Shown here: positions 6,616 to 59,315 of the stretch, piece after piece | How positions within the stretch are numbered: the first letter of the stretch is position 1 | Layout of the letters: each line of letters opens with the position of its first letter | Assembly: GCA_964016885.1 (NCBI GenBank) | Contig: OZ024740.1 | Span: forward strand, 51,026,001-51,090,000 | Direction of reading: 5' to 3' | DNA: 64,000 nt | DNA from: Eledone cirrhosa | Lineage: Eukaryota | Notes under the pieces: model-generated | Told to the model about the DNA's origin: nothing | The model's database searches: none | The model's input: only the letters and a program-made list of their open reading frames with translations | Program-made: the position numbers and the translations under genes

Positions 6616-6852
6616 TAAACAAGTAAGACTATTATTCAGCAGAGTACTCGATACTTGGGATAGTAGAGTAACTAAATATTAAAGAGAGTCAGAGCCTGAC
6701 GGCTGAGCTCTTGCCATTTCGAAAGCAATTTGCTGGAATTTGCTGTTGAAACAGCAAGAGCTCAGCCGTCAGGCTCTGACTCTCTTTAATATTTAGTCAC
6801 TCTACTATCCCAAGTATCGAGTACTCTGCTGAATAATAGTCTTACTTGTTTA
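6616..6852. repeat. Long palindrome of a PLE family-A terminus
   Basis: Arms of ~98 bp with one mismatch seen; imperfect pairing continues toward the centre at ~6733. Confidence 0.9.
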
Positions 6853-14737: not shown

Positions 14738-15250
14738 GAAAATGTGAGTGTCCCAATAAATAATAGTTGAGAAAATTGGATAAAATACCCTTAGTGATGG
14801 AAAATTGTGGACAGAAGTGCCTGTAGTATTTGCATGGTATTCAATATCTCACACATACTTCTGTTCACATCTCTCTCTAATAATATATAACCTGATGTTG
14901 TTAACTATTATTTCTAGGCATTTTCTGTGTTGGGATGCTTACATCTTCAAATTTAAAACCCTCCCAACGCTTCATAACTCATAAATTTATATATATATAC
15001 ATATATCATCATCATCATCATTTTAACATCTGCTTTCCCTGCTAGCAAGGGTTAGATGGGTCTACATGAACTAAGTCAGTACTGAAGCAGAGCCACTGAT
15101 CTTTCAGGTAGGCCAGGGATATATATATATATATATATATATAGGAACCAGTAAGACCCCGACTGCTGAGCTCAAGCCGTTTCGACGGCTAATTTATATA
15201 TATATATAACCATCAAGAGCGTTGAGGTATGTGATACATCAATTCATGTA

Positions 15251-19761: not shown

Positions 19762-19833
<72 letters not shown>

Positions 19834-19842
19834 TATATATAT

Positions 19843-21460
19843 ATCATCGTTTAATGTCTATCTTCCATATCTTCCACGCTAGCATGGGTTAGACGGAAGT
19901 TCTCCCACTTGAGGCAAGATTGGTCGGGTGACCGTGTCTTACTCGTATAGGACTGTCTGGCAGATTTCTACGGCTGGATGGCCTTCCTAACACCAACCAT
20001 ATTTACAGTGTGGACTGGGAACTTTTTACCATGTTACCTACACGGCCACATTACAGCGTGGACTGTGTGTTTTTTTTTTTTGTCGTGACACCTACACGAT
20101 CTCATTAGTTTGGACTGGATGTTGTGGTACCAACATAACTTTATAGAGAAAGGGCGGTGTTGGTGGGAGTGGGAGGATGGAGTTGGGTAGTGGGTTGGGG
20201 TATAGGTTTGGTTTGGAGGGACCTACTGACTGTAGGTTAACTTTGCACGTAAGGAAGCCAGGTCTTCTGTAATACTGCGTAGCACCAAAGATCTTGATCC
20301 AGTGACATTGTCTTAGAGAGGTGCAAGTGTGCAACATGATAAAGTCCGACCTTGCACACTTGCACCTCTCTAAGACAATGTCCCTGGATCAAGATCTTTG
20401 GTGCCACGCAGTATTACAGAAGACCCGGCTTCCCTACGTGCAAGTGTGCAAGGTCGGACTTTATCAAGTTTATCTGGGTCTACCTACTCTATAACTTCCA
20501 TCAATTTTGATCGCCCTGCACTTTTTTATACAGCTGTCGTCTTTCATGCCCATCACTTGACCATACCAACGTAATCTTCTCTTCAGTAAACAGCATCTGA
20601 TCCCTCTTATTCCTAATTTCTCACTTAGTTCATTTATGTTTTGCTGTTTGTGTATTACTATTACACATCCAACGGAGCATGCATGCTTTGTTCCTTCCAG
20701 TCTGCACAGGTCCTCTGTACACAATGCCCATGTCTTACTGCCAAGTAACATTACTGTTCGTATGCAGGCATCATACAATCTGCCTTTCATTTTTAGAGAG
20801 AAACCTCTTGTGGCCAACAGCAGTATAAGCTCTCTGAACTTTTTCCATCCCATTCTTACTCTGGCTACTGTACTTTCAGAACACCCACCACCACTGCTGA
20901 TTTTGTCACCCAGGTAACGGTAAGTGACCACTATTTCTATGGAACCATTTGGGCAATAGAAAGAGCTAGTATCTTGTGGGCACTTGCTACTTATTGCACC
21001 TGAGGATCGGCCACATATAAAATCTACGTTCTTAGATACCTTGTCTGTGATCCCACTACATCTTTTATGTACCCATCGTTTACATTTGGGACATAAAATG
21101 GAATTTCTGCCTACTCCTTTCCTACATATTAAGCATGGCCATTTCCCAGAGGGCACCTGTGCCCTATTTTCCTTTCTACATACTAGAACTTTAGTCTTAG
21201 ACAAGTTAACTTTAAGGCCTTTTGATTCTAGGCCATGCTTCCATGTTTGGAATTTCTTCTCTAGTTCAGCCATAGATTCAGCTATGAGAGTTAGATCATC
21301 TGTGTATAGAAGTTCCCATGGGCAGCCGGTCTTAAACTCTTCTGTTATAGCCTGAAGGGCAATAATAAATAGGAGGGGGCTAAGGACAGAGCGTTGATGA
21401 ACACCAACTTTTACGCTAAATTCTTCACTATATTCATTGCTAATTCTACTGATACTGACT
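19843..21460 (-). mobile_element. 5'-truncated RTE copy with internal inverted duplication
   Basis: ORF 20470-21504 (YTDD, GVHQRS, PHD); 3' UTR 19843-20240; both ends in (TA)n. Confidence 0.93.
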
Positions 21461-21470
21461 ATATATATAT

Positions 21471-21705
21471 ATAGGAAAAGTATGACTCCGGCGGCAGAGC
21501 TCAAGCCATTTCGACGGCTATTTCTGGACTAAATTAGAATTTTTAGATCAGGCTAAAAATTCTAATTTAGTCCAGAAATAGCTGTCGAAACGGCTTGAGC
21601 TCTGCCGTCGGGGTCATACTTTTTCCTATTTCCCACTCTACTACTCTAAGCATTCAGTACTCTGGTGCGTTATGGTCCATCTGGTTCCTTACCACATTTC
21701 CTTTG

Positions 21706-21708
<3 letters not shown>
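21471..21708 (+). mobile_element. PLE family-A terminus with 5' inverted arm (palindrome 21471-21629)
   Basis: Arms of ~76 bp; contains the hammerhead 3' half GAAA CGGC TTGAGCTCT GCCG TC; both ends in (TA)n. Confidence 0.8.
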
Positions 21709-21757
<49 letters not shown>

Positions 21758-23990: not shown

Positions 23991-26030
23991 CTCTATATTT
24001 ACTATTATATTTTCATGGTAAAGTTTTTACCTCCCATAATATTAAATCTATGAGATTTTGATAATATTTATTTTGAGAACAATACTTTCACATAAGTATG
24101 AGGGGCTGGTTATGGCTAGTTTGAACAGAAAGAGGTGAGAGAATTCTGGCCAGATATGGCCGGTTTAAACTTCCTTTTGGAAGAATCAAGAAGTCTAGAG
24201 AAGATTCCAACAATTCTTGGTATTTGATAACTAAATGTGAATTATGCCAATTTAGGCTTGATCATATCCAGTTGAACAGTAACAAAGTTCTTGATTTGTA
24301 TCTTAGAGGCGAAAGATTTGCATAAAAAGTAAAAAGATTTCTCCATTTTATAAATAAAGGAAGCCCTTTGGCTGTTTCATATTTTGCTTAATGCAAAAAC
24401 ACCTGATCTATTTTAATCCCATGAAAGTATAAATAGATTTATAACTGAAAACTATATACATTTATCTAACTTAAAACACATGTATAGAAATATGAAATAC
24501 AAAGTTTCTTTCTTTGAAAGAGTGAAAAGTTGTTTTAAAAGAAATTAAAATACATTATAAAATAAATATATGGGAAGAAAAATGACTAATAGTGAACTTT
24601 ATAAGAGCCTAGTGGTTATGTAAAGTAGTAAGGTGCAGTCATGTAAGGAAATCTTAATGAGAAATTAAGTATTCTATTTTCATTGGTAAGTACAGAAACA
24701 TGAGATGAAAAGAATGTGTAAGCAGTGAAAAAATAAAACAAGTAAAAGAGAAAACTAGTAGGTAGAAGAGTAAAATGGAAAAGGAAAAAATGAATGATGA
24801 TGATGATTGCAGTTTCATAATATTCCTTGAGGAAGTAAATTATATATTCTCATTGCAGTGTTTTTCTATTTAGTAGTTTAGGGAGATACATATAGACCCA
24901 TAATCTATCATCTATGCTGCATTGTATTGCAGGGAAAGACATTCCAAATAGACACTATTACAAGAATAAGCAATACATGGAGGCTCAGATCACTGTAATA
25001 AGCAGTAGGGATAATATAGGATTGATGAGTGTTTTGTTAGCTTCTAATGCTGAGCTGAAATTATTCAACAAGCTGATGAAGATCAGTTGGATACTTCCAA
25101 TAAAGATGTTTCTAACATTGGCACAAGGTAAACAATTTTATATTGGAGGAGATACAGTCAATTATGGTACCAGCTTTAAGCCTGGTGCTTAATTTTTGTT
25201 TAGTTTTTCCTTTTTATTATCAGACACAGAAGACTAAAAGTCTAAGTTAACTGTAGCCGAGTTTGAACTCAGAATGTTGATGGGTGTAACCAAATACAAT
25301 GCATGAGTCTGCACTACCATTCCAACCACTAATTATGTCAATCAACTACTTTTACCATTTACCAGTAATGCCTGAACCAACAACAGAACTTTTACTTAGT
25401 TACTTAACATGCTAGAAAAAGTAACCAAATCTCCCCCATTTCACACTCTAACATTTATAAAAAAAAGATCTAGATGGGATGAACACCTTTGATCATAGGC
25501 TAACCTGAGGCTAAACAATATCAAGAACAACATCCAGTAATACTAAATGTGAACATTACAGGGCAGCAGTAGACTATCAGAGAACTAAATGAATATCCTT
25601 CTTTCAATTATAAATTGTAACCATACTTCTTAATGTAAAGTATAAAATGTATCTGAGTACAGCATAAACAGCTCAGCTCCCATTTCCCTTTTCTGGAAAT
25701 CTTAGGCTTGAAGCATACATAGGGAAGACACCAGAGGGAATATTCCAGTATATTTTCCTTAGGGGTGCAATCATAACATTGCTACAAACTATTTATGGAG
25801 AGAGAGAGGGGGGGTGCTGAGTAAATAGATAAAAAGATAGATAGATATTGCTTTCCTTTCCCTCCCTTGGAATTCCTAGGCTTCATACACACATGGAAAA
25901 GCCATCCAGGTATTTTCACTGGAGATACAATAACACTATAGTAAGTATACTGTATACATACAGTGTTTTATAATGTTGTTGCATATAGGTTTTTAGGGAA
26001 CTTAAAATAGCATCCCTTATATATATATAT

Positions 26031-27398
26031 ATCATCATCATCATCATCGTTTAACGTCCATCTTCCACGCTTGCATGGGTTTGGACGGGAGTTTTCCCAC
26101 TTGAGGCAAGATTTGTTGTCCTGCTCGTATAGGACTGTCTGGCGGGTTTTCTACGGCTGGATGCCCTTCCTAACACCAACCACGTTTACAGTGTGGACTG
26201 GGAGGTTTTTACCGTGTTACCTACACGGCCACATTACAGCGTGGACTGTGTGTTTTTTTGTCGTGACACCTACACGACCTCATTTGTTTCGGACTGGATG
26301 TTGTGGTACCAACATAACTTTACATTGAAAGGGGTGGTGTGGGTGGGGTGGGGGTAGTGGGACGGGGGTGTATTTTTGTTAGAGGTGCCTACTGATTGTA
26401 GTAGGTTTCACTTTGTACTTAGGTAAGGCGGGTCTTCTGTATTACTGTGTAGCGCCAAAGATCACGGTCCAGTGACATTGTCTTGGAGAGGTGTAAGTGT
26501 GTGAGGTCGGAATTTATCAAGTCGTCCCAGGTTTTTCTGGGTCTGCCTACTCCGTGGTTACCGTCTATTTTTATTGCTCTGCACTTTTTTATACAGCTGT
26601 CGTCTTTCATGCGCATCACGTGACCATACCAACGTAGTCTTCTCTCGAGTAAACAACATCTGATCCCTCTTATTTCTAATTTTTCCCTTAGTTCGTTTAT
26701 GCTTTGCGGTTCACGTATATTACTATTACACATCCAGCGGAGCATGCAAGCTTCGTTCTTCTCCAGTCTGCATATATCCTCTGCACACAATGCCCAGGTC
26801 TCACTGCCAGTAACATTGCTGTTCGTATGCAGGCATCATACAGCCTGCCTTTCATTTTTAGAGAGAACCCTTTAGCGGCTAATAGTGGTATAAGCTCACT
26901 GAACTTTTTCCATCCGGCTCTGACTCTAGTTACTGTACTTTCAGAGCACCCTCCACCACTGCTGATTTTGTCACCCAAGTAACGGAAGGTGTCCACTATT
27001 TCTATAGAACCATCTGTGCAATGGAATGAGCTAGTATTCTGTGGGTACTTGCTGCTACTTATTGCACCAGAGCACCGGCCACATATAAAATCTATGTTCT
27101 TAGTTAGCTTACCTGTGATCCCATTACATCTTTTATGCACCCATACTTTGCATTTGGGACATAAAATGGAGTTTCTACCTACGCCTTTCCTACACACTGA
27201 GCATGGCCATTTCCCGGATGGAACCGGTGCCCTATTTTCCTTCCTACAAACTAGAACTTTAGTCTTAGACAGGTTAATTTTAAGGCCTTTTGATTCTAGG
27301 CCATGCTTCCATCTTTGGAATTTCTTCTCTAGTTCAGCCATTGATTCAGCTATGAGCGTTAGATCATCTGCGTATAGGAGTTCCCATGGGCAGCCGGT
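26031..27398 (-). mobile_element. 5'-truncated RTE copy
   Basis: Starts at TGCPWELLYADD; PHD and C-terminus present; frameshift at ~26810; full 3' UTR and tail next to (TA)n. Confidence 0.95.
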
Positions 27399-27556
27399 GA
27401 AGGAAGTATGGTAAAGAACCAGATGGACCATAACACACCAGAGTACTCGATACTTAGGGTAGTAGAGTGGGTAATAGGAAAAGAGCCAGGACCCTGACGG
27501 CTGAGCTCCAGCCATTTCGACAGCTAGATCTGCTGAAATGGCCAGAGCTTTTTTCG
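27399..27556 (-). mobile_element. PLE family-A terminus fused to the RTE 5' junction
   Basis: Reverse-complement homolog of 21580-21703 with a short fold-back (CCATTTC..GAAATGG). Smaller pieces occur at 15143-15195 and 28350-28392. Confidence 0.75.
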
Positions 27557-27569
27557 CCTATATATATAT

Positions 27570-28164: not shown

Positions 28165-28404
28165 GTATATATATGTATAGATATATATTTACATAGGAAG
28201 AGCATCTAGCTGTAAAAATCCCAGCCAAAATATAGTTCCGTTTGAGCAAAGTACAGCACGGCCAACTGGCCAGACTTGTCTCATAATGTGGACAACCTGT
28301 CTAACCCATGCAAGCATAGAAAAATAGATGTTAAACAGTGATGATGATGTGCGTTATGGTCCACCTGGTATCTTACCACACCCTTTTTGTTATATATATA
28401 TATA

Positions 28405-28835
28405 TACACACAATAAGGATAATTGCAAAGATCCAATGTAGATGTTCAAAATTCCTTTATTTATAAAGTTGTAATACATATTTCAATGGCATTCATAGTT
28501 ATTTGATGTTTCAATCTCACAACCATTAAGGCTACATCATGAGAGAGCATCTTTTGCAATAAGGTTATATTGCCAATACATTATAAGCTATAGACAGAGG
28601 AATGAACCAGTATGATGTTTTCACTAGAGGATTGTTCCCTTGTCTTTAGCTTATATTGCATTGGCAATGTAACTTTATTGCATAAGATGCTGTCTAATGA
28701 TGTAGCCTTACTGGGTGTGAGATTGAAGCATCACATAACCATGAACAGAATTGAAATATGTATTACAGCTTTATAAATAAAGGAATTTTGAACATCTTGA
28801 ACATTTTGATCTTCACAATTATCCTTACTGTGTGT
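28405..28835. repeat. ~430-bp degenerate palindrome of a PLE-like terminus
   Basis: Arms of ~190 bp; the right arm has GCTGT CTAATGA...GAAA T ATGT ATT ACAGC followed by AATAAA. Confidence 0.8.
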
Positions 28836-29034
28836 CTAGTGATGGAAATGGGTTTTAAAAACTAGGGATATGCTAAAGTCCATGAGGCTGAGATTGTGAA
28901 GGAATGTGCGGTACACACTATAAGCTCTCCCTCCTTTCTGTAAACTGAAAGGTTGGGGAACCTTGCATATAGCTACTCATTTTCCTCACTGTATACTCAT
29001 ACACAGAACTGCAAATAAGAAATGAGTACTTTAA

Positions 29035-32000
29035 CCGACAGTGACTATATAATTATTGCTGGCGACCTAAATGGTCACGTTGGACAACACCGTGACGGCT
29101 ATGACAGAATCCATGGAGGCTATGGGTTTGGTACTAGAAATGAGGAAGGCTCCAGAATCCTGGAATTCTGTGACGCAAATAATCTAACTATCTGTAACAC
29201 AAACTTCAAAAAACGAGACAATCACTTGATCACCTATAGATCAGGGGAACACGCCAGTCAGATAGATTATATCCTTACCAGAACACGGGACAGAGCGTCT
29301 GTTGTAAACACCAAATCCCTCCCCCATGAAGAATGCACCTCCCAACATAGCCTCATAGTTAGCGACCTCATAGTCAGGACGAGACATATTCGACAACAGA
29401 GGAAGACTATTCTTAGGAGAAAAATATGGAAGTTAAAGGACCCCACAGCCAGAAATAAATTTAAAAGCATATTACTTGATGCTTTTGACAGTAAGGAAGA
29501 GCAATTAGAGTCGTACAATATAGAGGAACAGTGGGAATTCCTGAAAGCTAACCTGCTGAAGGTGACAGATGAAATCTGTGGCTGGAGCAGACCTATAGGC
29601 AGGAGGAGAGTAACTTGGTGGTGGAACAGTAAGGTGGAGGAATCGATCAAGGCCAAAAAGCAGGCTTGGAAAGTATGGCGGGATGGGAGAAGTAGAGAAG
29701 ACTATCAAGTGGCCAGGAGGGAAGCTAGGAGACAAGTGTACTTCGCAAGAAGGGAAGCAGAGGAAAGAAAGTTCAAGCATGTTCTACAACGCGAGGACCA
29801 AAAACGTGAGGTGTTCAGGATTGCTAGGCAATGTGTCAAGGAAAACCGTGATATTGTCGGGGAGAAGTGTGTCCTTAATGATGATGGTATACTTGCCATC
29901 ACTGACGCTGATAAGAAGGTAGCTTGGAAGTGTCACTACGAAAGGCTACTAAATGAGGAGAATAAATGGGAGAAAGACAGTCTCCCCCACATCGATCCAA
30001 TAGAGGGACCAGCAGTGCAAGTTGAAGGTAGTATAATAAGTAAGGCAATCAAAGACATGAAGACAGGCAAGGCGGCTGGGCCTTCGGAAATAGTTGCTGA
30101 AATGCTGAAAGCATCTGGAACGGTGGGACACACTATGGTCACCCGGATAGTAAACCAAGTCATACAGAATGGAGTCGTTCCGAAGGAATGGCACAGCATC
30201 ATCATCATTAACTGCTACAAGGGTAAAGGAGATGCCCTAGATAGGGGAAACTATAGAGGCATTAAATTAATTGACCCAGTCATGAAGGTCAGAGAAAAAG
30301 TAATAGCACAACTAATCAGAGAGCGAATTGATCTAGATGAAATGCAGTTCGGGTTTGTGTCAGGTAAAAGTACAACAGACGCTCTTTTCATTGTACGACA
30401 ACTACAGGAGAAGTACCTAGCTAAAAGTAAACCCCTATACTTAGCTTTTGTTGACTTGGAGAAAGCCTTTGACAGAGTACCCCACTCGATTATCTGGTGG
30501 GCCCTTAGAAAACTAGGTGTTGATGAATGGCTTGTGAGAGCTATACAAGCCATGTATAAAGAAACAGTCAGCAAGGTTAGACTTAACAACGAATATAGTG
30601 AAGAGTTTAGCATAAAAGTTGGTGTTCATCAGGGCTCCGTCCTTAGCCCCCTACTATTTATTATTGCCCTTCAGGCTATAACAGAGGAGTTCAAGACCGG
30701 CTGCCCATGGGAACTTCTATACACATATGATCTAACGCTCATAGCTGAATCAATGGCTGAACTAGAGAAGAAATTCCAAACATGGAAGCATGGCCTAGAA
30801 TCAAAAGGCCTTAAAATTAACCTGTCTAAGACTAAAGTTCTAGTTTGTAGGATGGAAAATAGGGCACTGGTCCCATCTGGGAAATGGCCATGCTCAGTGT
30901 GTAGGAAAGGAGTAGGCAGAAACTCCATTTTATGTCCCAAATGCAAAGTATGGGTGCATAAAAGATGTAATGGGATCACAGGTAAGCTAACTAAGAATAT
31001 AGATTTTATATGTGGCCGGTGCTCAGGTGCAATAAGTAGCAGCAAGTGCCCACAGAATACTAGCTCATTCCAGTGCACAGATGGTTCTATAGAAATAGTG
31101 GACACCTTCCGTTACCTGGGTGACAAAATCAGCAGTGGTGGGGGGTGCTCTTAAAGTACAGTAGCTAGAGTCAGAACGGGATGGAAAAAGTTCAGAGACC
31201 TTATACCACTATTGGCCGCTAAAGGGTTCTCTCTAAAAATGAAAGGCAGGCTGTATGATGCCTGCATATGAACAGCAATGTTACATGGCAGTGAGACTTG
31301 GGCATTGTGTGCAGAGGATATACGCAGACTGGAGAAGAACGAAGCTTGCATGCTCCGTTGGATGTGTAATAGTAATATATACATGAACGGCAAAGCATAA
31401 ATGAACTAAGGGAGAAATTAGGAATAAGAGGAATCAGATGTTGTTTACTCGAGAGAAGACTACATTGGTATGGCCCCGTGATGCACATGAAAGACGACAG
31501 CTGTATAAAAAAGTGCAGGGCAATAAAAATAGACGGTAGCCACGGAGTAGGCAGACCCAGAAAAACCTGGGACGACTTGATAAATTCCGACCTCACACAC
31601 TTACACCTCTCCAAGACAATGTCACTGGACCGAGATCTTTGGCGCTACACAGTAATACAGAAGACCCGCCTTGTCTATGTACAAAGTGAAACCTACTACA
31701 GTCAGTAGGCACCTCTAACAAAAATACACCCCCGTCCTACCACCCCCACCCCATCCACACCACCCCTTTCGATGTAAAGTTATGTTGGTACCACAACATC
31801 CAGTCCGAAATAAATGAGGTCGTGTAGGTGTCACGAAAAAAAACACACAGTCCACGCTGTAATGTGGCCGTGTAGGTAACACGGTAAAAACCTCCCAGTC
31901 CACACTGTAAACGTGGTTGGTGTTAGGAAGGGCATCCAGCCGTAGAAAACCCGCCAGACAGTCCTACACGAGCAAGACAACCAATCTTGCCTCAAGTGGG

Positions 32001-32070
32001 AAAACTCCCGTCCAAACCCATGCAAGCGTGGAAGATGGACGTTAAACGATGATGATGATGATGATGATGA
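29035..32070 (+). mobile_element. 5'-truncated, inactivated RTE copy (includes ORFs 29022-31154 and 31478-31708)
   Basis: Highly similar to the full copy from mid-endonuclease onward. YADD is changed to YTYD; stops at 31152 and ~31269; frameshift at ~31378; (GAT)n tail runs into (TA)n. Confidence 0.95.
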
Positions 32071-32599
32071 TATATATATATATAGTATGTATATGTATGT
32101 ATTGGCAGATATATGGGAATATTTTCTCTATCTGACACCGCATTTTTACAGTATTTCTCTACAGTATCTTTGTAATTGAATACATAGGAAAGTAAGTATT
32201 TATGGTGAGATAGCAAAATAACCCTTAATACCTTTAGGATTACTGACTGATTTTCAACCAATCTAAAAAGAAAGAAGTAAATTAAGGTAGATAACTTTAG
32301 GAATGGGGTTACAGAGCTTTATTAACACAAGTGTCAAAGATTAGATTAGATTTTAAGAAACCTTTTTGGCAGAGTTGAAGTGTGACCAACATAGCCAGGA
32401 ATAAATAATAAGATATAGCAGATAATATTGTGTTAAGTAGGGCAGAATTTAATGGCAAACACCTGATGAAACTGAATATTTTGGTGAGTAATTCTCTAAC
32501 TTATAGTTCTGTGTTCGAATCATACCAAAGATGACATAAAATATCATCCTTCCAAGGTCATTAGAATAAACATATGTGATTTATAGTGAAGTAATTTGT

Positions 32600-34658: not shown

Positions 34659-36234
34659 TCATCATCATCATCATCATCATCACCGTTTTACGTCCGTTCT
34701 TCCACGCTAGCATGGGTTAGACGGGTTGTCCTGTTGTGGGCAGTGTCTGGTCGGCTGACCATGCCTTGCTCATACAGGAACTGATCTGGCTTGATTTCTA
34801 CAGCTGGATGCCCTTCCTAACACCAACCTCATTTACAGTGAGTGCTGGGTGCTTTTTCGTGGCGCCTACACGTCCACTTTACAGTGTGGGCTGGGTGCTT
34901 TTTTGCCGTGGCACCTCCACGACCACCTTGCGGTGGGGGGGGGGGCATATTGTTTATATGCTTCAGCATGTACCCATGGGAGGTCGGGTACCCTGTATTA
35001 CTGCGTGACGCCAGAAGTCACGGTCGTGTGTCATTGACTTTGAGAGGTGTAGTTGGGTAAGGTCGGCTTTTATCACCTCATCCCAAGTCATCTTGGGTCT
35101 CCCCACTCCGCGGTTTCCATCAACTTCTAGTGCTCTGCACCTTTTTATGCAGCTGTCATCCTTCATACGCATCACATGTCCATACCAGCGTAACCGCCTC
35201 TCCTGCACGCAGCATTTGATTCTTCTTATGCTCAGTCTCTCTCTCAATTCCTTTATGCTTTGTCGTTCACGTATATTACTGTTACACATCCATCGGAGCA
35301 TGCAGGCTTCGTTTCTCTCTAATCTACGTAAGTCTTCCACCTTCAGCGCCCAGGTCTCACTACCATGCAACATCGCTGTTCGGATACACGCATCATACAG
35401 TCTGCCTTTCATTCTGAGGGAGAAGCCTTTTGCAGCTAGCAGTGGTAGTAGTTCCCTAAACTTCTTCCATCCCGTTCTTACCCTAGTTATTGTACTTTCT
35501 GAGCACCCACCTCCGTTGCTAATTCGGTCACCTAGGTAGCAGAAGCTGTCTACTGTTTCTACAGGGCCCTCCCAGAGATTGGTGGTACTTGTTTCCTGTG
35601 GCTGTTTGCTTGCTGTTTCAGCACAGCTGCTGCATGTGAATCCTACATTCTTAATTAAGCTTCCTGAGATCCCGCTACATCTCTTGTGTACCCATTGTTT
35701 GCATTTGGGGCAGAGAATGGAGTTCCTACCTACACCTTTCCTACATACTGAGCAAGGCCATTTCCCTGAGGGGATCTGGGTTCTGTTTTCTCGTCTACTT
35801 ATAAGGACCTTAGTCTTTGTCATGTTGACTTTGAGGCCCTTTCTCTCTAGTCCCTGCTTCCAGGTTTGGAATTTATTCTCTAGTTCTACCATAGATTCAG
35901 CTATGAGTGCGAGGTCATCAGCATACAGGAGTTCCCATGGGCATCCGGTCTTAAACTCCTCCGTTATTGCCTGCAGGACTATGATGAACAGGAGAGGGCT
36001 AAGAACAGAGCCCTGGTGGACCCCAACCTGTACGCTAAATTCCTCGCTATACTCATTGCCAATCCTAACTTTGCTGACTGCTCCCCTATACATGGCTTGT
36101 ACCGCTTTCACAAGCCATTCATCTACTCCTAGTTTTCTAAGAGCCCACCAGATTACTGCACGTGGAACTCTGTCAAAGGCTTTCTCAAGGTCGACAAATG
36201 CCAAGTAGAGTGGCTTACTTTTAGCTAGGTACTT
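34659..36234 (-). mobile_element. 5'-truncated RTE copy of a second subfamily (ORF 34963-36204 open)
   Basis: FVDLEKAFD, YADD, PHD, FCYLG, RRLRWYGHVMR; shorter, diverged 3' UTR; (GAT)n tail; 5' end abuts (TA)n. Confidence 0.94.
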
Positions 36235-37345: not shown

Positions 37346-38884
37346 CAAAGGATGAACGATTGCACAAGAGATGATGAAAATTCCATTTTTCTTTAGAATC
37401 TTGCCACTGGGAAGGGGACAGGTAAAAAATAAACTCAAAATTAAGAAAAAGAGACAACACACATATATACACATACCTACATGTGTGTGTGTGTGTGTGT
37501 GTGCCTGTTTCCATGTACACCTTCATATTGACACTGTGTATGTCCTGGATATTAGCAGTTTCCTAAATGTCAGTGAAATAATATTATACTTAAAAAATAA
37601 AGTATGAACTGTCGCTGGGAAAAGTGTTTGGCCATAGAATGATACTGCTCAAAACCGTCATCCAACCCATGCTAGCATGGAAAAGCAGTCATATCAACGA
37701 TGGTATATATATACAATCATCATCATTATCATCACCATTTTACATCCATTTTTCCATGCTAGCATGGGTTAGATGAGTTGTCCTGTTGTGGGCAATGCTA
37801 GGACCATGTCTTGCTCTCAAATATATATATATATATAGTAATAATAAATACAAAGACCAAAATTCAAAGCGGGCTTGGTGTGGATTGTATTTATATATAA
37901 AACCATAGAGCAAATATTCATTATTAATACAGATTAAAGTTTAAGCAAAGAATTTCTGCTTTCACCCTATATAAGATCTTCTGAAACTGAGTTTCAGAAG
38001 TTTACTCGCCTTCAGATAATAACATGAGTCAACTGGATGAACTATAATGTTCTGTAAACATTAAATACCACAAATAGATGGGTGTATACACACACACACA
38101 CACACTGACTGAATACACATATGCTTTCTCTCAAAAGAAAACAACTTTTTGTTCCTTCCTTTACTCACTTTTATCTTTCTATTTCTCATTCTATCTTCTC
38201 ATGAAGAAGTAGTGTCCAAAACATAAAAAATATTTTCCTTCTATATCAAGCGTTAAACTAATATATTTCTTCATTGTACTGTGATGTTTGCTTTGTTATT
38301 TCTGTTTACTTTTTACACACACATGCATATATATATATATGCATAAATATATACATAGATATACATACATATATTTATATATACTGTAAAGTGGTCATGT
38401 AGGTACCACGACAAAAAGCGCCCAGTCCACACTGTAAATGTGGTTGGTGTTAAAAAGGGCATCCAGCCGTAGAAACCAAGCCAAATTCAGTTCTGTGTGA
38501 GCAAAACATGGTCATCTGACCTGGTTTGTTTCACAATGGGACAGTTCATCTAACCCATGCTGGCATGAGAAATGTATGTTAAACAATGATGATGATGATA
38601 TATACACATATACATATATAAACATAAAATTCATACACAAACAAACACATATATATACACACACAAACATATACGTATACATATATATATATAAAAATCA
38701 CTGAAACAACCTATCTCTAGCAGTCAACTGACGAGATGGGACTGTCAATATTCACCCATAATTTTTATTCATTATATATTTATAAACCCATGCTAGCGTG
38801 GAAGATAGACGTTAAACGATGTGCTTATATATATATCATCATCATCATCACCGTTTTACGTCCGTTCTTCCATGCTAGCATGGG

Positions 38885-38927
<43 letters not shown>

Positions 38928-39670: not shown

Positions 39671-42600
39671 ATATATATATAACTAAATAAATACACACAT
39701 TCAATCTTTTGCAAGCATTTCTGAAAACTGTTAATAATTTGTTTTCCTTTTAATGTAAAAATTTGTCAACTACCAACATACTTATCCTTATCAATTTTGG
39801 AGGAATATTTCTTTCTTTTTTTCCCATCCATTAAATTTAACTCATCAAAACATTTTGTAATCAATATGAATTCAAACAATAGGTTACCCAATAACCAGTA
39901 GGCTATTTATTAATCATTAGTTTCTCGTGTCTATCGCTACATTCTTTCTAAGCACAATTTGCTTGCCATCTCATATTTTTACCCTAATTTAAAAGCAACT
40001 TCTTTTCTACAGTGTTAGTTACCAGGAGAAGAGGAGAATGAAAAAAGTATATTATAATTTTCAGTTGTAGTAAATTAGTAAAAGATAAAAGAATCCAGAC
40101 AACCGTTTATCAAAGCACAACATATCTAAACAAGGCATTGGAGTTCAGTTGATGCAGAAGAGAACAATGATTAAAATAATTAAACAAGAAGCTTACTAAT
40201 AGGTTAAGAACTGCAGATGCAGAACTAGAATATGTAGGTTTGGGTGTATCGGCTTTCCCTAGTACAATTCACATTACTATCTATGTTTAGAGACCAATTC
40301 AAGCAGGCATAGAGAAATACCACATGTTACATACCAGCAGTGAACAGTGGCTTCAGTCTGTATCAGTGATCAAAATTCCATATTTTAACAACGTGAACTT
40401 CAATATAATTGCGAGGTGGCTTATCCAGTTGATGGACCACATCAAATTTTTCCAACAGCTTGTTCCATTCTGGAAATATTATTTCTAATTTTCTAAAAAA
40501 AAGTCATTCTAAACAAAAACAACTTCTTTCAAAAATGATATGGTTGGTGTATATGGATCAGGATGGATAAATGGATAGATAGGAACAATACAAGAACACT
40601 AGGGAAGTGTGAAAAGGTTAACATATAGAAAGTGAGATGAATTGAATCATGGAGGTTAATTTTAATTTTGAAGTTATAAAATAACAATTTAAAAAAAAAA
40701 AAATGAATTGGAAAAAGTTTAAAATAAAAACAATAATAATAATTGAAGAATGAAAGAAAAAATAAAGAATTGCAGAGGCAAAAGCAATTGGGTTAGTGCA
40801 GCTGGTTATAAAAGTTACCCATTTTCATTGAGTCTTGTTTCTTTTTATATTATGTTGCCATTGTAGAATATCTATGTAACTAGTCAGAAGAATTCTCAGA
40901 AACAAATCAAGTCAGGAATGGAAAACTAATGTGATACACTAGTGCAAGGTTAAGAGTAATGCATTTATTAATTTCCACAATGATAAGATTTACTAACAAT
41001 TTGATCTTAAGATATACCAGACTTTGTCAAAGAATGAATATTTGCAGAATGCAGTGTGGGTAGAAATTTAGAAAAAATTAAAATAAACTATAAACAAAAC
41101 TACAGATATGTTTTCTTAGTGGTAGTCTTAAAATATGATACTTGTATTCGTGTCTATACAGGATACAGTTATAATTAGAAACATTTTAAGATCAATTAAA
41201 TTTCAAGAATGCCTGAGTCATAAAGGAAATTCCACCAAACTGTATACTAATAAACATTGCTTTTATACCGAACTGTTTTTTTTTTCCCTTCACCTCGTTT
41301 CTGTTTCCATGATAAACTTTCTTTACACTGCCACATCTATTTTGTTTAATAGTATTTGGACTTAGGTAGGAAGGACAAATATTTGTTTTCAGTTTTTCTG
41401 TTGTTTTACTTAAGTATATTTAAGCAAAAGCTATTTACATAAAATGTCTCAGATAAGGTAACTAGCTAAATTACTAAACCAGATTGATTACATTCTGCTT
41501 AATTTCGTAATCTTTGACTCTTTGATTAGATTGCAATTGAAACTTGGTGAACTGTAAAACTCAATTATCTACACATATTCAAAGAATGGAAAAAAGAACA
41601 ATAAAACAGCTTTTTTTTTTTTTGTCCAGTGTAGAAAATAAAAAGTAGAACTGAGGAATAATAGGCATAAACAACAACTTCCTAGATATGGTACCATAAA
41701 TTAAGAAAGTTTCTTATCTTGAATTACTGTTAGTTTCTCTATTGGAACATATCAATCTAACATTATATCCAAATAAACCCAGTGTGTAACTAGAACATGT
41801 ATAAGATTCTTTTTATTAATGTGATTATTAGATAAAGTTATCAAAAAGAAATATTACAGAGAGTTGTAACTAACCAAGCTGGAAGAATATCAGGTTACTT
41901 TACTTATGCTGGTAGACACCCATCTCACCCCACCTATATATATATATATATATATATACAGCTTACTTAGGTAGGAGCACTATAACATTTAGAAGTGTTC
42001 TATCAATTGGCAGGGCTGAATTCAAATATTCTTAAATACTTAGGCTGTTTGTGTATGTGTTTGACCTCCACTGGTTCCAGTGACAAGTGTTCTAGTTGAT
42101 TTCATCAACAGAACAGCCTCCTCATGAAATCAACTTGCAAGAGACTGAACATTCCACAGACACGTGTACATTTAACATCTTTCTCAAGGAGTTCCAGCAT
42201 GACACAGTGTGTGACAAAGCTGGCTCTTTGAATTACAGGTGCAATCCACTTTGCCAGCTGAGTTGACTGAAGTAACATGAAATAAAGATGTGTGTTGGGA
42301 ATCAAACTCACAACTTTATTAAGCGACATGCCTTCATAAGTACCTGAACTATGGCAGAAATGGTCCCACTGTAGCCCTGCTTCAGTTAATTCTATAAACA
42401 CTCCACTAAAGTGGACTCGTTTTCAATGGAGGACAAAAACAGCCACCCATAAATTAAATATATATATATATATTTATATCATCCTCATCATCATCACCGT
42501 TTTACGTCCGTTCTTCCGCGCTAGCATGGGTTATATATATATATATAAACATATATATAACCCATGCAAGCGTGGAACATAGACGTTAAACGATGATGAT

Positions 42601-44009
42601 GATGATGATATATATATATATATATATATAAACACACAAAAAACTATATATATACATATATACAAATTGAGTTCCAATGAATTCGATGTTAAGAACAGAG
42701 AATTGTATACAATATAAGAAATATCATTCAGTTTTTAACTTTTTATATAATACTCTAATACTCTGTTTTTAATAAGTTCTTTAGTGTGAGCTGAGATTAC
42801 CAGATTGGAAACTAATATACACCAACTCTTCCTTATTGTGTGCTCTATATAGGCACAACCCAAAAAATTGTGTATATACATATATTATATATACACATAT
42901 ACACACACATCCCCATGCATGTGTGCACGCACACAGGTGCACACACACAGGTGCACACATGCACATACACACATTTTTATTATCATTAAAAGCTGAAGAT
43001 TCTTGAACCCTAACTTAGAGTTTCATGTTGACAATTATTTAAATGACTGAGGTAGGGAAGCAATGTGACGATATATAAGCAAAAGTATTTGCAAACATTA
43101 AAATATGGTTAATCATTGTGTTTTTGTTTGCTAAAAAAACTGTTAGAAAATGCATTACATATTCATCTATTCAATTGTTATATGCAGAGCATGTGACATA
43201 TGCATCTATTCACAAGCAAAAACACGTGATGTTTTCATATCTTCAATATTATATGTATAAAACACACAAAAGCAAGAAAAGTGGCTATTGTGAATGAAAT
43301 TTATGAAGAGAATGATTACAATTTTTTTTATAATGGGACCATCTTTCTGGATTTAGAAAATCTATTATCTGATATCTGGAAATTCCTTAATAAACAGCAA
43401 TTAAATCATCATCATCATCATTTCATTTTACGTCCACTTTTTCCCTGCTTGCAAGGGTGGGACTTCAAGAATTATTAAATTCTGATCATTTGTTCAAAAT
43501 TGCAACATGCTGTATAATAGAATGTTACATTTCTGAGACAAGGAAGAATCAAATCTACTGCAGCAATCAATGTAGGAGGATACATGTTCAATAATGGACC
43601 AATTGATTTTATAATTGTTAATATTATCATCCCATAAACTCCAGAGATATTTGAATAATGAGGTGGTGAGGTGTATTACTGAATGCCTAAATCTATAAAT
43701 AATTTAGGAGAATCTTTTCTGAAAGGGATTTTCAGTAAATCCTATATAGCTTTTTGTTTCACAAACAGGGAATATAAGTCAGAAAGAAATAGCAAATAGC
43801 AAGCAGATATTTAGGTTGATGCAATTACATTGAGGGGGAGAGATTTGTATGTTTGTATTGGAAAGTTTTTGGTGCACATATAGCTCACCTTCATGCTATT
43901 TCTGTCAAAGATCTTATAGTATATATAGCCTTTGGAGAAACACTTATAAGGTTTAGAAAGATCCTGGCAACATATGTGTTTGTGTGTGTGGATATTTGAA
44001 GATTTTCAG

Positions 44010-45858: not shown

Positions 45859-46072
45859 ATAATGAATGTATATAATGTACATAAATGCATGTATACAATG
45901 TATATAATTAACTAATATTTGAAGGACTTGGGATTTAGTGACCACCACAATGACCATGTTTGTATAATAAAATATGAACACAGTATGACTGAGGGTTAAG
46001 GAGTTCATTTCACAATCATTTGGTTTGGGTTTTGATCCCATCATTTGGCATCTTGGGCAAGTGTCATTTACC

Positions 46073-46240
46073 ACAGCTTGGGGTCAAAATGTGAAAACAG
46101 CTTGGGGTCAACATGTGAAAACAGCTTGGAGTCAACATGTGAAAATAGCTTGGGGTCAAGATGTGAAAACAGCTTAGGGTCAACATGTGAAAACAGCTTG
46201 GGGTCAAAATGTGAAAACAGCTTTGGGTCAACACGTAAAA
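46073..46240 (+). repeat. 24-bp minisatellite, ~7 copies, inside a CORE-like SINE (~45985-46290)
   Basis: Unit ACAGCTTGGGGTCAA(A/C)ATGTGAAA. Confidence 0.92.
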
Positions 46241-47062
46241 CCATGAAAGTGAAAACATGTAGGAAACTGTTTGGAAGCCCATTGGATGGATAGTACTTGT
46301 AATTCAAGAGCCCAGTCTTATATCACTATTATGATGAACCTCATATCTTACGGGTACACGTGTTAGTGGAATACTCTGACATTTACATGTTAATTTCATG
46401 AGTTATCTGTCCATTTGATTAAACGATTGATACACTCATTCTTAAAACTGAAGGTGGTCCATTCTTTTCTAAAACAAAAAAGGTTCTCGTCAGGTGTTGG
46501 TCAACCTGAAGTTAGATAGTATAAACTTGGCCAAGGTGCCACAGAGCATGACTATACCCAGGACAACATGATTGTGAAACTAAATTCTTACTAACATAGC
46601 AATGCATGCACACACACATATATATATACATATGCACATATATATATACATACACACACACATAATATATATCATCATCATCATCATCATCAACGTTTAA
46701 CGTCCGTGTTCCACGCTTGCATGGGTTTGGACGGGGGTAGTCCCACTTGAGGCAAGAGTGATTGTCTTGCTCGCATAGGACTGTCTGGCAGGTTTTCTAC
46801 AGTTGGATGCCCTTCCTAACACCAACCACATTTACAGTGTGGGTCTGGGAGGTTTTTACCGTGTTGCCTACACGGCCACATTACAGCGTGGACTGTGTGT
46901 TTTTTTGTCGTGACACCTACACGATCTCATTTGTTTCGGCCTCGATGGCGCGGCACCAACATAACTTTACATAGAACGGGGTGGTGTGGATCGGGTGGGG
47001 GTGGTGGGACGGGGTGTATTTGTTAGAGATGCCTACTGGCTGGAGTAGGTTTTACTATATAT

Positions 47063-50000
47063 TTAGGTAAGGCGGGTCTTCTCTGTTACTGAGTACCGCC
47101 AAAGGTCTCGGTCCAGTGACATTGTCTTGGAGAGGTGTAAGTGTGTGATGTCGGAGTTTATCAGCTCGTCCCAGGTTTTTCTAGGTCTGCCTATTCCGTG
47201 ACTACCGTCTATCTTTATTGCCCTGCACTTTGTTATACAGCTATCGACTTTCATGCGCATCACGTGTCCATACCAACGTAGCCTTCTCTCGAGTAAACAA
47301 CATCTGATCCCTCTTATCTCTAATTTATTCCTTAGTTCGTTTATGCTTTGCCGTTCACGTATATTACTGTTACACATCCAGCGGAGCATGCAAGCTTCGT
47401 TCCTCTCTAGTCTGCGTATATCCTCTGCACACAATGCCCAGGTCTCACTGCCATGCAGCATTGCTGTTCGTATGCAGGCATCGTACAACCTGCCTTTCAT
47501 TTTTAGTGAGAACCCTTTAGCAGCTAATAGTGGTATAAGCTCTCTGAACTTTTTCCAACCAGTTCTGACTCTAGCTACAGTACTTTCAGAGCACCCTCCC
47601 CCACTGCTGATTTTATCGCCCAGGTAACGGAAGCTGTCCACTATTTCTATAGAACCCTCTGCGCAATTGAAAGAGCTAGTAGTTTGTGGGCACTTGCTGC
47701 TACTTATTGCACCAGAGCACCGGCCACATGTAAAATCTATGTTCTTAGTTAGCCTACCTGTGATCCCACTACATCTTTTATGCACCCATACTTTGCATTT
47801 AGGACATAAAATGGAGTTTCTACCTACGCCTTTCCTACACACCGAGCACGACCATTTCCCAGAAGGGACCGCCGCCTTGTTTTCTTTCCTACAAACTAGT
47901 ACTTTGGTCTTAGCCAGGTTAATTTTAAGTCCTTTTGACTCTAGGCCGTGCTTCCATGTTTGGAATTTCTTCTCTAGCTCGGCCATTGATTCCGCTATGA
48001 GTGTCAGGTCGTCTGCGTATAGGAGTTCCCATGGGCAGCCTGTCTTGAACTCCTCTGTTATGGCCTGAAGGGCAATAATAAATAGTAGTGGACTGAGAAC
48101 AGAGCCCTGATGGACGCCGACTTTTACGCTAAACTCTTCACTATATTCGTTGTTAATTCTAACCTTGCTGACTGTTTCTTTATACATGGCTTGTATAGCC
48201 CTCACAAGCCATTCGTCAACGCCTAGTTTTCTAAGAGCCCACCAGATAATGGAGCGGGGGACTCTGTCGAAGGCTTTCTCCAAGTCGACAAAAGCTAAGT
48301 AGAGGGGTTTACCTTTAGCTAGGTACTTCTCTTGTAGTTGTCGTACTATGAAAAGAGCGTCTGTGGTACTTTTGCCTGACACAAACCCGAACTGCATTTC
48401 ATCTAGGTCAATTCTCTCTCTGATTAGTTGCGCTATTACTCTTTCCGTGACCTTCATGACCTGGTCGATTAATTTAATGCCTCTATAGTTACTCCTATCT
48501 AGGGCGTCTCCTTTACCCTTATAACAGTTAACGATGATGCTGCTATGCCAGTCCTTCGGAACAACCCCGTTTTGTACGACTTGGTTAACTATGCGGGTGA
48601 CCATGGTGTGTCCCACCGTGCCAGATGCCTTCAGCATCTCAGCAACTATTTCCGAAGGCCCAGCCGCCTTACCAGTCTTCATATCCTTGATTGCCTTACT
48701 TATTATACTCCCCTCGACTAACACTGCTGGTCCCTCTATTGGGTCGATATGGGGGAGACTGCCTTTCTCCCAATTATTCTCCTCATTTAGAAGCCTTTCA
48801 TAGTGACACTTCCAAGCTACCTTCTTATCAGCGTCGGTGATGGCAAGTGTGCCATCGTCGTTTAGTACACACTTCTCCCCGACAATATCACGGTTTTCCT
48901 TGACGCATTGCCTAGCAATCCTGAACACCTCACGTTTTTGGTCATCGCGTTGTAGAACATGCTTGAACTTTCTTTCCTCAGCTTCCCTTCTTGCTAAGTA
49001 CACTTGTCTCCTAGCTTCCCTCCTGGCCACTTGATAGTCCTCTCTACTTCCCCCATCCCGCCATACTTTCCAAGCCTGCTTTTTGGCCTTAATTGACCCC
49101 TCCACCTTACTGTTCCACCACCATGTTACTCTCCTCCTGCCTACAGGCCTGCTCCAGCCACAGACCTCGTCTGTCGCCAACAGCAGGTTTGCTTTCAGAA
49201 ATTCCCACTCTCCCTCTATATTGTCCGACTCTAAATGTTCTTCCTTACTGTCGAAAGCATCAAGTAATATGCTTTGAAATTTATTCCTGGCTGTGGGGTC
49301 CTTTAGCTTCCATATTTTCCTCCTGAGGATAGTCCTCTTCTGTTGTCGAGTACGTCTCGTCCTGACTATGAGGTCGCTAATTATCAGTCTATGTTGGGAG
49401 GTGCATTCTTCATGGGGGAGGGATTTAGTGTTAACAACAGACACTCTGTCACGTCTTCTGGTAAGGATATAATCTACCTGGCTTGTGTGTTCCCCGGATC
49501 TATAGGTGATCAGGTGATTGTCACGTTTTTTGAAGTTAGTGTTACAGATAGTTAGGTTATTTGCATCACAGAATTCCAGGATTCTGGAGCCTTCCTCATT
49601 TCTAGTACCAAACCCATAGCCTCCATGGATTTCGTCGTAGCCGTCACAATGTTGTCCAACGTGACCATTTAGGTCGCCTGCGATAATTATATAGTCACTG
49701 TCGGATATTTGGGAGGTAGTTAGCATCAGTGTCTCATAGAATCTGTCTTTTATAGTGCCGGGCAGTCCGGATTGGGGTGCGTACGCAGATATTACTGTCA
49801 CCGTAGTTCTATTGAGGACAAGTCGTATTTTAATTATTCTGTCGTTCACTCTATTTACGTCTATTATCTTATCTGCCCACTTTTCTGCTACCATGATTCC
49901 TACTCCACCCAGCCCATCGTCGTTTCCCACCCAGAAAAGCTTATAACAACGTTTTTTACCCTCAATGAACCTAGCAGACCCACCCCTCCACCTGGTCTCT

Positions 50001-50503
50001 TGAATACAACAAACATCGACCTCCTTACGTTCAAGCATTTCTACAACCTCGTTAGTGCGACCCTTTAGGGTGCCTACATTTATGGTACCAACTCTGAAGT
50101 TTTGGATTGCGTTTGGGGGTTGGGGGCGGTGAGGGGCGGGGGGCGATGGGGTTATGTTAGCCGTCCGCGGTCGAAACAATGAGGAGTGCTCGCATTCTCG
50201 TCCAAGGGGTGAATTTGTCTTTATCTTTGGCATTGTCGCTGAGCGTCCAGATTTTTCTCTCTCACCTCCACTCTCCAGGATTCCGCAGTCCATCCATCCA
50301 TCATATATCGTATATCGAAAGGCAACCAGGCAAGCGATAGTATAGGTCTCTGGTTTCTGATTGGTCCGCGTAATAATACTGGTGATACGTGGGGGCTCTG
50401 TTTTATGATTGGTCCACGTAATAGCAATGGTGGTGTGTGGGGGTGGGAGGGAGGGGTGTTGGGTAGCTAGCAAGAAGGTAATGATTGAGATGGGTCTATG
50501 CAT
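47063..50503 (-). CDS. RTE ORF: APE endonuclease + reverse transcriptase with internal PHD-type zinc finger (true start may be a downstream Met)
   Basis: APE motifs GTINVGTL, IQETRW, SAYAPQ, GDLNGHVG, QVDYIL, SQHRL. RT motifs YRGIKLI, QFGF, FVDLEKAFDRVP, GVHQGSVLSPLLF, YADD (48008-48019), FRYLG. RTE C-terminus RRLRWYGHVMR, GRPRKTW. Confidence 0.96.
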   Translation of the reverse strand: MHRPISIITFLLATQHPSLPPPHTTIAITWTNHKTEPPRITSIITRTNQKPETYTIACLVAFRYTIYDGWMDCGILESGGEREKSGRSATMPKIKTNSPLGRECEHSSLFRPRTANITPSPPAPHRPQPPNAIQNFRVGTINVGTLKGRTNEVVEMLERKEVDVCCIQETRWRGGSARFIEGKKRCYKLFWVGNDDGLGGVGIMVAEKWADKIIDVNRVNDRIIKIRLVLNRTTVTVISAYAPQSGLPGTIKDRFYETLMLTTSQISDSDYIIIAGDLNGHVGQHCDGYDEIHGGYGFGTRNEEGSRILEFCDANNLTICNTNFKKRDNHLITYRSGEHTSQVDYILTRRRDRVSVVNTKSLPHEECTSQHRLIISDLIVRTRRTRQQKRTILRRKIWKLKDPTARNKFQSILLDAFDSKEEHLESDNIEGEWEFLKANLLLATDEVCGWSRPVGRRRVTWWWNSKVEGSIKAKKQAWKVWRDGGSREDYQVARREARRQVYLARREAEERKFKHVLQRDDQKREVFRIARQCVKENRDIVGEKCVLNDDGTLAITDADKKVAWKCHYERLLNEENNWEKGSLPHIDPIEGPAVLVEGSIISKAIKDMKTGKAAGPSEIVAEMLKASGTVGHTMVTRIVNQVVQNGVVPKDWHSSIIVNCYKGKGDALDRSNYRGIKLIDQVMKVTERVIAQLIRERIDLDEMQFGFVSGKSTTDALFIVRQLQEKYLAKGKPLYLAFVDLEKAFDRVPRSIIWWALRKLGVDEWLVRAIQAMYKETVSKVRINNEYSEEFSVKVGVHQGSVLSPLLFIIALQAITEEFKTGCPWELLYADDLTLIAESMAELEKKFQTWKHGLESKGLKINLAKTKVLVCRKENKAAVPSGKWSCSVCRKGVGRNSILCPKCKVWVHKRCSGITGRLTKNIDFTCGRCSGAISSSKCPQTTSSFNCAEGSIEIVDSFRYLGDKISSGGGCSESTVARVRTGWKKFRELIPLLAAKGFSLKMKGRLYDACIRTAMLHGSETWALCAEDIRRLERNEACMLRWMCNSNIRERQSINELRNKLEIRGIRCCLLERRLRWYGHVMRMKVDSCITKCRAIKIDGSHGIGRPRKTWDELINSDITHLHLSKTMSLDRDLWRYSVTEKTRLT
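47717..47848 (-). other. PHD-type (C4HC3) zinc finger coding segment inside RT
   Basis: CSVC-x10-CPKC-x2-WVHKRC-x13-CGRC lies between GLKINLAKTK and FRYLG; the same segment is present in all five long copies. Confidence 0.85.
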
Positions 50504-58524: not shown

Positions 58525-58873
58525 TGAGAGAGAGAAAGATACAGTTATTTATTAGAGATGTTTCATTGTTGTCAAATCATTGGTTTGCCCATTTTGGAAT
58601 GCGATAGTTGTACTAGTTTACGAGACCTTTAAGTCCTAATGGAGTCATAGTGACATACAGCATGTCTTGGAAATTTTAAACCTGGCAGAATAGGTACTTT
58701 TTTTATCGGCTTTGTAAAGATGAAAAGCAAAGTTGACCTTGGTGGGATTTGAACTCAGAGGGCAGAGAGCAAATACCACAAAGTATTCTATCTGATATGC
58801 TATGCTAACAACTCTGCCAATTCACTGCCTATAATTTCATTAGTAAATATTTTTTATGCAGACATAAAAGATC

Positions 58874-59306
58874 ATATATACATTATATACATATGTGTGA
58901 CTATATAGGGTGTATGTGTGAATATATATACATATGTATATACATTATATACATATGTGTGACTATATGGGGTGTATGTGTGAATATATATATATACATA
59001 TATACATTATATACATATGTGTGACTATGTGGGGTGTATGTGTGAATATATATATATACATATATACATTATATACATATGTGTGACTATATGGGGTGTA
59101 TGTGTGAATATATATATATATTTATATACATTATATACATATGTGTGACTATGTGTGAATATATATATATACATATATACATTATATAGATATGTGTGAC
59201 TATGTGGGGTGTATGTGTGAATATATATATATATTTATATACATTATATACATATGTGTGACTATGTGGGGTGTATGTGTGAATATATATACATATTTAT
59301 ATACAC
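58874..59306 (+). repeat. ~58-62-bp minisatellite, 7-8 copies
   Basis: TATATACATTATATACATATGTGTGACTAT..GGGGTGTATGTGTGAATATATA. Confidence 0.9.
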
Positions 59307-59315
59307 ATTAATCAA

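Follow-up and report, generated by a model that had tools for sequence, protein, structure and literature searches.

In the portions of the literature on which we draw, the insertion unit of EN+ Penelope-like elements (PLEs) is described as a pLTR with an adjacent inverted, 5′-truncated copy and an optional tail of 30–40 bp (PMC8557442, PMC3846280), and the palindromes at PLE junctions have been read as the outcome of self-priming (Arkhipova et al. 2013, PMC3846280). An in vitro system for PLEs was called for by Craig et al. 2021 (PMC8557442). In the in vitro reaction described for PAc, the Poseidon element of Anolis carolinensis, both target strands are cut and extended, two adjacent internal RT starts define the tail, and insertion is independent of ribozyme cleavage (Frangieh et al. 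2024, PMC11167929). With respect to the element RNA, the Penelope start site has been located in the pLTR, and Schostak et al. 2008 saw no obvious mechanism for regeneration of the pLTR (PMC2377424). A hammerhead variant with a U3–A8 core has been described in Schistosoma Cercyon (Cervera and De la Pena 2014, PMC4209133).

The element examined here was followed from a 64,000-nt stretch of Eledone cirrhosa DNA (the window). Its coding content and its layout of inverted arm plus tail are ordinary for PLEs, and self-priming is likewise already in print. As in canonical EN+ PLEs, an RT is joined to a C-terminal GIY-YIG domain, the pLTRs are in partial tandem, an inverted copy lies head to head, a tail is present at one end and the targets are microsatellites. 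Unlike the canonical elements as described, its tail measures 78 nt and both arms stop within a 6-nt window, whereas the published truncation is variable. It resembles PAc in that the putative tail-bounding RT starts lie just downstream of the hammerhead at the pLTR–ORF junction, the targets are AT-rich and a dimer is predicted. Compared with PAc as described (PMC11167929), the Eledone starts differ in forming a 1:1 head-to-head genomic pair and in being accompanied by a stop fixed at 60 nt upstream from the inner one; in addition, about 95 nt separate the tail from the ORF that follows it, and the hammerhead has a core of the U3–A8 type. The predicted ribozyme shares type I topology, the U3–A8 core, a long helix II and a palindromic loop III (GAGCTC) with the PLE hammerheads of PMC4209133, and departs from those described there in its full helix III stem of 5–6 bp and in a further stem-loop on helix II.

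The family offers natural reaction products in the tens of thousands, and these carry three landmarks that are sharp to the nucleotide, at −18, +42 and +120 (element positions are counted from the G of the hammerhead GAAA, which is position 0 and corresponds to 21587 of the window in the focal copy). These landmarks argue that a single insertion uses both internal RT starts, one for each target strand. Our preferred reading, to which we assign a probability of roughly 0.55, is that priming takes place from both target strands, at the two internal RT starts, and that both cDNAs run off the RNA 5′ end, which would lie at −18, their ends then being joined head to head. In L1 twin priming, element RNA is also primed from both target strands and an inversion results; there the second start varies and the segments are free of overlap, whereas the Eledone arms overlap and both starts are fixed. 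The minus-strand strong-stop DNA of LTR elements is likewise a fixed short cDNA, made by internal priming near the RNA 5′ end in a process that is tRNA-primed and needs RNase H; the primer for the Eledone element, in contrast, would be target DNA.

Palindromic insertions and their parent element

Sequence comparison places the four window pieces noted in the preliminary description in a single family and bears out the inverted repeats at 21471–21629 (90% over 160 columns) and 6616–6852 (93.7% over 237 columns). The palindromes are thus real, but their extents needed correction, as the 21471 insertion continues to 21707 and the third insertion occupies about 27400–27559, where the minus strand carries the long arm. 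In the focal insertion, the short inverted arm (21471–21546, minus strand) carries element positions +42 to −34, and its outer end abuts (TA)n at what is probably the inner RT start. The long, tail-bearing arm (21547–21707, plus strand) carries −40 to +120; the two arms are joined bluntly, without microhomology, and (TA)n lies on either side. Within the long arm, all on the plus strand, are a TTAGTCC motif at 21567–21573, whose A (21569) is position −18, and the 3′ half of a type I hammerhead at 21576–21629, comprising the 3′ strand of helix II, GAAA (21587), helix III, GUC with a predicted cut after 21609, and the 3′ strand of helix I. The 78-nt tail follows at 21630–21707, spanning the two putative RT starts (+42 and +120); it is present in the long arm only, with no mirror copy, and in long copies of the element it continues into the ORF leader.

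The remaining members in the window differ in age and state. An older-subfamily palindrome at 6616–6852, to which no strand is assigned, has both arms reaching +104. The insertion at 27400–27559 (minus strand) belongs to a third subfamily, its long arm (27400–27532) ending near −14 and being accompanied by a short, internally deleted arm. A solo short arm at 15141–15194 (minus strand) covers +42 to −11 and has a (TA)n run on each side, and a tail-only remnant of the same family lies at 28349–28394 (plus strand), followed by (TA)n. The single turning point that had been proposed for these insertions does not hold in the window, where the centres fall at −37.5 (21549.5), −14 (6734) and −8.5 (27526.5); together with the end of the solo piece, at −11, these points are spread over 29 nt.

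The parent element is a PLE, as had been proposed, with an RT plus C-terminal GIY-YIG coding sequence, the pLTR arrangement, and an inverted arm with a tail. Specifically, long copies L131 and L011 contain an RT-like stretch with LYRDD followed by a C-terminus containing AYIG, and in 12 of 30 loci selected for RT the element 3′ end runs directly into the ORF leader, which is the pLTR arrangement. A Pfam search returned GIY-YIG only below threshold (E 0.069) and no RT match, and a PDB search with the RT gave no match; the Atlas neighbours, at 0.94–0.96, are animal RT clusters. The long copies examined carry frameshifts or stops, with no single intact ORF among them. Ahead of the EN lies a four-Cys linker whose spacing differs from the CX2-5CxxC of Neptune/Nematis; this Cys-rich linker and the (TA)n targeting may point toward the Neptune/Nematis clade. 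Copies L032 and L131 also show an internal deletion, with an AG|GT junction between RT and 3′ UTR sequence, and a large inversion whose centre lies within the RT.

In terms of abundance, the 34-nt 3′ end is found without mismatch at 9,420 places in the 3.0-Gb genome, as compared with 0 for a reversed control, and the family exceeds 26,000 copies genome-wide, with insertions within (TA)n. The palindromes are stumps of an abundant EN+ Penelope-like element. Since the two arms end in one 6-nt window, what is left of most copies measures about 200 nt.

Fixed ends of the insertions

For the analysis of ends, copies anchored at the tail end were taken in position order, from 100 listed places (98 loci plus the window copy) together with the first 30 from each of two further listings; the whole palindrome sample comes from one contig (C1). 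Segmentation gave 162 copies, two of which proved to be an insertion already counted, viewed from its opposite end, and were dropped. An inverted arm is present in 115 of the resulting 160 copies and lacking in 45, and exclusion of four internal fold-backs far upstream left 111 palindromes for analysis. Arm ends were called by script through maximal exact extension, with an uncertainty of 1–2 nt; a few calls are visibly over-extended (L067, L109 and L124).

Two of the landmarks are outer ends. The tail-bearing arm ends at +120, and the outer end of the inverted arm lies at +42 in 84 of the 111 palindromes. Genome-wide, 26,328 junctions of +42 with TATA stand against 26,435 arms that read through toward the tail, a ratio of 1:1. 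In the part of C1 that is common to both lists, a head-to-head read-through partner was found for 53 of 95 +42 ends and another +42 end for 2 of 95, and 42/42 pairing was found at none of the 30 loci read. Conversely, read-through arms face another read-through arm in 6 of 100 cases, with a +42 arm lying between in two of three such pairs. These pairing counts indicate that the +42 and +120 ends are used as a pair.

The third landmark is the inner stop. Among 164 arms that reach −16, 110 end within −16 to −21, a rate of 0.11 per nt that is about 25–50 times that at most other positions. Elsewhere the rate is 0.002–0.005 per nt (windows +84 to +25, +21 to −9 and −54 to −150), and it is intermediate, at 0.010–0.037 per nt, at the predicted ribozyme cut site (+22 to +24) and on the shoulders of the peak (0.037 and 0.029). 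The G+C-rich helices III and lower II show just 0.004–0.005 stops per nt. The same boundary is evident by eye in two diverged subfamilies, where the local sequence is AGTCTGG or AGTTC[AG]G. Copies that have no inverted arm also end at −16 to −21 in 7 of 45 cases, so the stop is independent of fold-back. Public contigs from one study (four runs, of a kind not on record), which by their nature cannot reveal starts, agree weakly with this stop: the bin that contains −18 marks a step of about 15-fold upward in depth, and 6 of 12 joints among those listed hit −18/−17. The boundary is passed in some copies, since 13 of the 111 palindromes extend beyond −25, including the focal one, which reads through −18 (joint −40/−34). 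An apparent cluster of ends at about −265 was not counted as a stop because, judged by eye, it reflects subfamily divergence from the reference copy (upstream letters are shared by L163, L166, L183 and L205).

The hammerhead and the sequence at −18

It had been noted that the CUGANGA half of the hammerhead is missing. No CTGANGA or TTGANAA core occurs on either strand of window positions 21461–21720, so that the 5′ core half is indeed absent from the focal insertion, but full copies have UUGANAA at this place rather than CUGANGA. Complete type I hammerheads are found in long copies, with a UUGANAA (U3–A8) core in which all four bases occur at N; a CTGANGA search would miss them because of this U3–A8 core. 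The lack of any complete hammerhead in the family, which the preliminary description had named as a refuting condition, thus does not apply. A core pattern search gave 54 matches, about 10 of which are palindrome junctions and not ribozymes, with counts of 14 for TTGAAAA, 13 for TTGACAA, 6 for TTGATAA, 3 for TTGAGAA and 6 for CTGAGAA. The CTGAGAA subfamily (L104, L114, L207, L211, L218 and L092) places C3 opposite A8, a mismatch between the canonical and U3–A8 cores, and is possibly inactive or an evolutionary intermediate. An Rfam scan of the window, which holds 3′ hammerhead halves only, returned no hammerhead among the 150 of 216 matches listed, and its matches, of microRNA type, were judged to be chance.

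The unconstrained fold of L151 is a three-way junction (z −2.2), and constrained folds gave a three-way junction in 5 of 8 cases and a partial one in the other 3. Helix II pairing is kept between subfamilies despite sequence change (CGGCTATTT/AAATAGCCG versus CAGCTAGAT/ATCTAGCTG). At the predicted cut site, +22 to +24, there is a weak excess of 5′ ends (6 versus 1.4 expected, p 0.003). In L192 both palindrome arms end at this site (+23/+24), and in L292 and L304 the stretch between −18 and +22 is of main-subfamily type while that from +23 onward is of older-subfamily type, these copies being either an intermediate subfamily or recombinants at the cut site. A recurrent deletion in direct arms, seen in L039, L054 and similar copies, lies between two GCCGTC direct repeats that flank helix III.

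Position −18 is the A of a YYAGTY motif that recurs at −20 to −15 in full hammerheads otherwise differing in the loop. The form TTAGTCC is present in 32 of the 54 pattern matches, and TCAGT and TTAGTT occur in other subfamilies. YYAGT at −18 is initiator-like and fits the RNA polymerase II consensus, and in the main subfamily a TATA-like TATTTAT lies 31 nt upstream of −18 and CCAAT about 92 nt upstream; TATTTAT is also part of helix II, and one older subfamily lacks it. Among 100 TATA-flanked ends listed, 46 have a non-genomic G directly before A(−18), such as the copying of a cap would produce. With four neighbouring rows dropped, the count is 43 of 96, as compared with flank backgrounds of 15% (p 6e-12) and 31% (p 0.003). 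C is equally frequent at this place (47 of the 100 listed ends), and a control at −17 shows a slight G excess of its own (12 of 100 versus 4–8%). The base before −18 in older subfamilies is G in 12, C in 30 and A in 9 of 51 ends, which is no clear replication. The extra-G signal is positive in solo ends of young subfamilies and is confounded in palindromes by templated junction bases. Oligo-T runs abut AGTCC in L109, L231 and L235.

In most folds −18 falls in the 3′ strand of the predicted upper helix II stem, with an apparent compensatory change in L242, and the conserved AGT may for this reason be structural. None of the 12 ORF-bearing copies that have a 5′ pLTR starts at −16 to −21, and 9 start further upstream.

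Joints and competing routes to the palindromes

The joints between arms are diverse, with inserted bases in 52 of the 111 palindromes, microhomology in 37 and blunt junctions in 22. The commonest, −18/−12, is found in 6 of 111 and matches the modal gap of 76 nt; its mirror form occurs in L198. The inverted arm reaches further than the direct arm in 64 palindromes, matches it in 8 and falls short of it in 39 (in 28 of these by at least 3 nt), an asymmetry to which post-insertion deletions could contribute. In 12 palindromes the direct arm starts at or beyond +42 and the arms share no sequence, and therefore neither arm was copied from the other in these cases. The two arms of one palindrome differ by 5.9%, as compared with 10.0% between copies, and arm pairs are concordant in subfamily, with 8 rare variants shared versus 83 and 102 private ones, a pattern compatible with origin of the arms either from one RNA or from two. 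Near-symmetric long palindromes of the kind that fold-back would give also exist (L122, −116/−115; L167, −43/−43).

These data bear on several routes. The preliminary description had nascent cDNA snap back on helix II and self-prime the second strand, with a peak of palindrome centres at that helix. The centres do peak within the stem-loop (median −15.5; 75 of 111 in −44 to −12), as does the stop, so that the predicted positional bias is strongly borne out, and a cDNA reaching −53 would, in predicted folds, form a fold-back whose 3′ end is paired; however, the peak lies at the 3′ side of the stem-loop and not on its axis (−28), to within 3 nt of which only 1 of 111 centres comes. Snap-back further predicts a tail-bearing arm to about −45 to −53 with an inverted arm from −3 to −11, a combination seen in 0 of 111, and it needs the tail-bearing arm to be the longer, contrary to the arm lengths given above. 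As the majority of arms never get to the 5′ strand of helix II, solo arms end at the same stop and the 12 non-overlapping pairs are left over, we consider this route very improbable. Folding back in another register, in which cDNA stopped at −18 loops back over a few bases such as GGAC, or an antisense template primes itself, a route suggested for rotifer PLEs, and later deletions make the asymmetry, fares somewhat better but is still improbable. Head-to-head PLE palindromes have been interpreted in print as products of self-priming (PMC3846280), and such a route suits the closeness of paired arms with their shared rare variants, the single register of the −12/−18 joint and the symmetric long palindromes. 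It leaves unexplained the fixed position of the +42 end at (TA)n and its 1:1 occurrence with tails, the non-overlapping pairs and the many joints with inserted bases, and when cDNAs that end at −17, −18 or −21 are folded as DNA, their 3′ end is unpaired. Descent of the palindromes from a single MITE-like ancestor is contradicted by the finding of 102 distinct joints among the 111, spread over several subfamilies. The broader possibility of one or a few such masters, or of fold-back artefacts of assembly, could appeal to the one recurrent joint, but with arms that differ as they do and the same ends present in public contigs it is hardly credible.

A different kind of rival concerns the stop itself. 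Run-off at the RNA 5′ end is its likeliest explanation, and a structural or protein block is the main alternative: the same two-primer architecture would apply, but the RNA would continue upstream, and the upper helix II stem, or a protein bound to it, would halt RT at −18. The telomerase template boundary provides an analogy for such a block. Were it so, the ribozyme fold would set the turning point, although not through snap-back. The position of −18 within a predicted stem in two diverged subfamilies, the L242 change, the fold of L131, in which the 3′ foot of helix I coincides with the +42 start, the extension of most ORF-bearing copies beyond −18 and an extra-G signal that is not clean all favour a block. 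On the other hand, the stop lies 3–4 nt inside a weak, A+U-rich stem and not at its foot, stronger helices are passed with few stops, and the untemplated-looking bases and oligo-T at the stop suit the end of a template. We regard a block as unlikely overall, though it is the most serious of the alternatives considered here.

With respect to the preferred reading of two primed target strands and run-off, the steps can be set out as follows. By analogy with PAc, the protein would bind element RNA and nick both (TA)n strands. One target 3′ end would prime at +120 and the other at +42, where the ends are observed. Both cDNAs, which usually stop at −16 to −21, would do so probably on reaching the RNA 5′ end. 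The two cDNA 3′ ends would then be joined by template switch or by microhomology end-joining, with trimming and added bases, and the −18/−12 joint could result from two identical cDNA ends annealing over the pseudo-palindromic GGAC. Longer copies would need a template that reaches further upstream, or else a jump to an RNA 3′ end or strand transfer.

The sharp stop is a strong-stop-like signature that is apparently undescribed; a search of titles and abstracts, covering mainly journals outside subscription, found no description of a fixed stop or strong-stop step in PLEs. A search by sequence for comparable fold-back stumps in other genomes returned nothing. An extension of the preferred reading, which we put forward as doubtful, is that PLEs replicate through a target-primed strong-stop intermediate, in which RT would begin close to the mRNA 5′ end and run off a capped start within the hammerhead, and would then have to jump to the hammerhead-cleaved RNA 3′ end, the 41 nt from −18 to +22 serving as a terminal redundancy comparable to retroviral R. 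If this were true, success would rebuild the upstream promoter and give pLTRs and tandems, whereas failure would give palindromes; the PLE ribozyme would gain a role and pLTR regeneration would be explained. The only hint of cleavage is the weak excess of ends at +22 to +24.

Several neighbouring features of the window complete the description. Copies of LINEs that we presume, on the basis of motifs, to be RTE-type lie at 46620–50400 (minus strand), 29032–32102 (plus strand), 26018–27398, 19800–21470 and 34660–36234, and end in (CAT)n; the copy at 46.6–50.4 kb looks near full length, and the PLE pieces at 21471 and 27400 adjoin truncated copies. An origin of the hammerhead half as a 5′ UTR ribozyme of these LINEs was ruled out because family copies elsewhere sit in (TA)n and lead into the PLE ORF. 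Inverted repeats of RTE 3′ sequence are present at 20243–20443, 42458–42630 and 38773–38899, two of which surround (TA)n runs. At 28403–28838 lies a 441-bp imperfect palindrome (83%) that is unrelated to the PLE family, in which no hammerhead motif was noticed and which may be a fold-back element or a MITE. Tandem arrays, one of 62-bp and one of 24-bp units, occupy 58789–59367 and 46051–46266, respectively.
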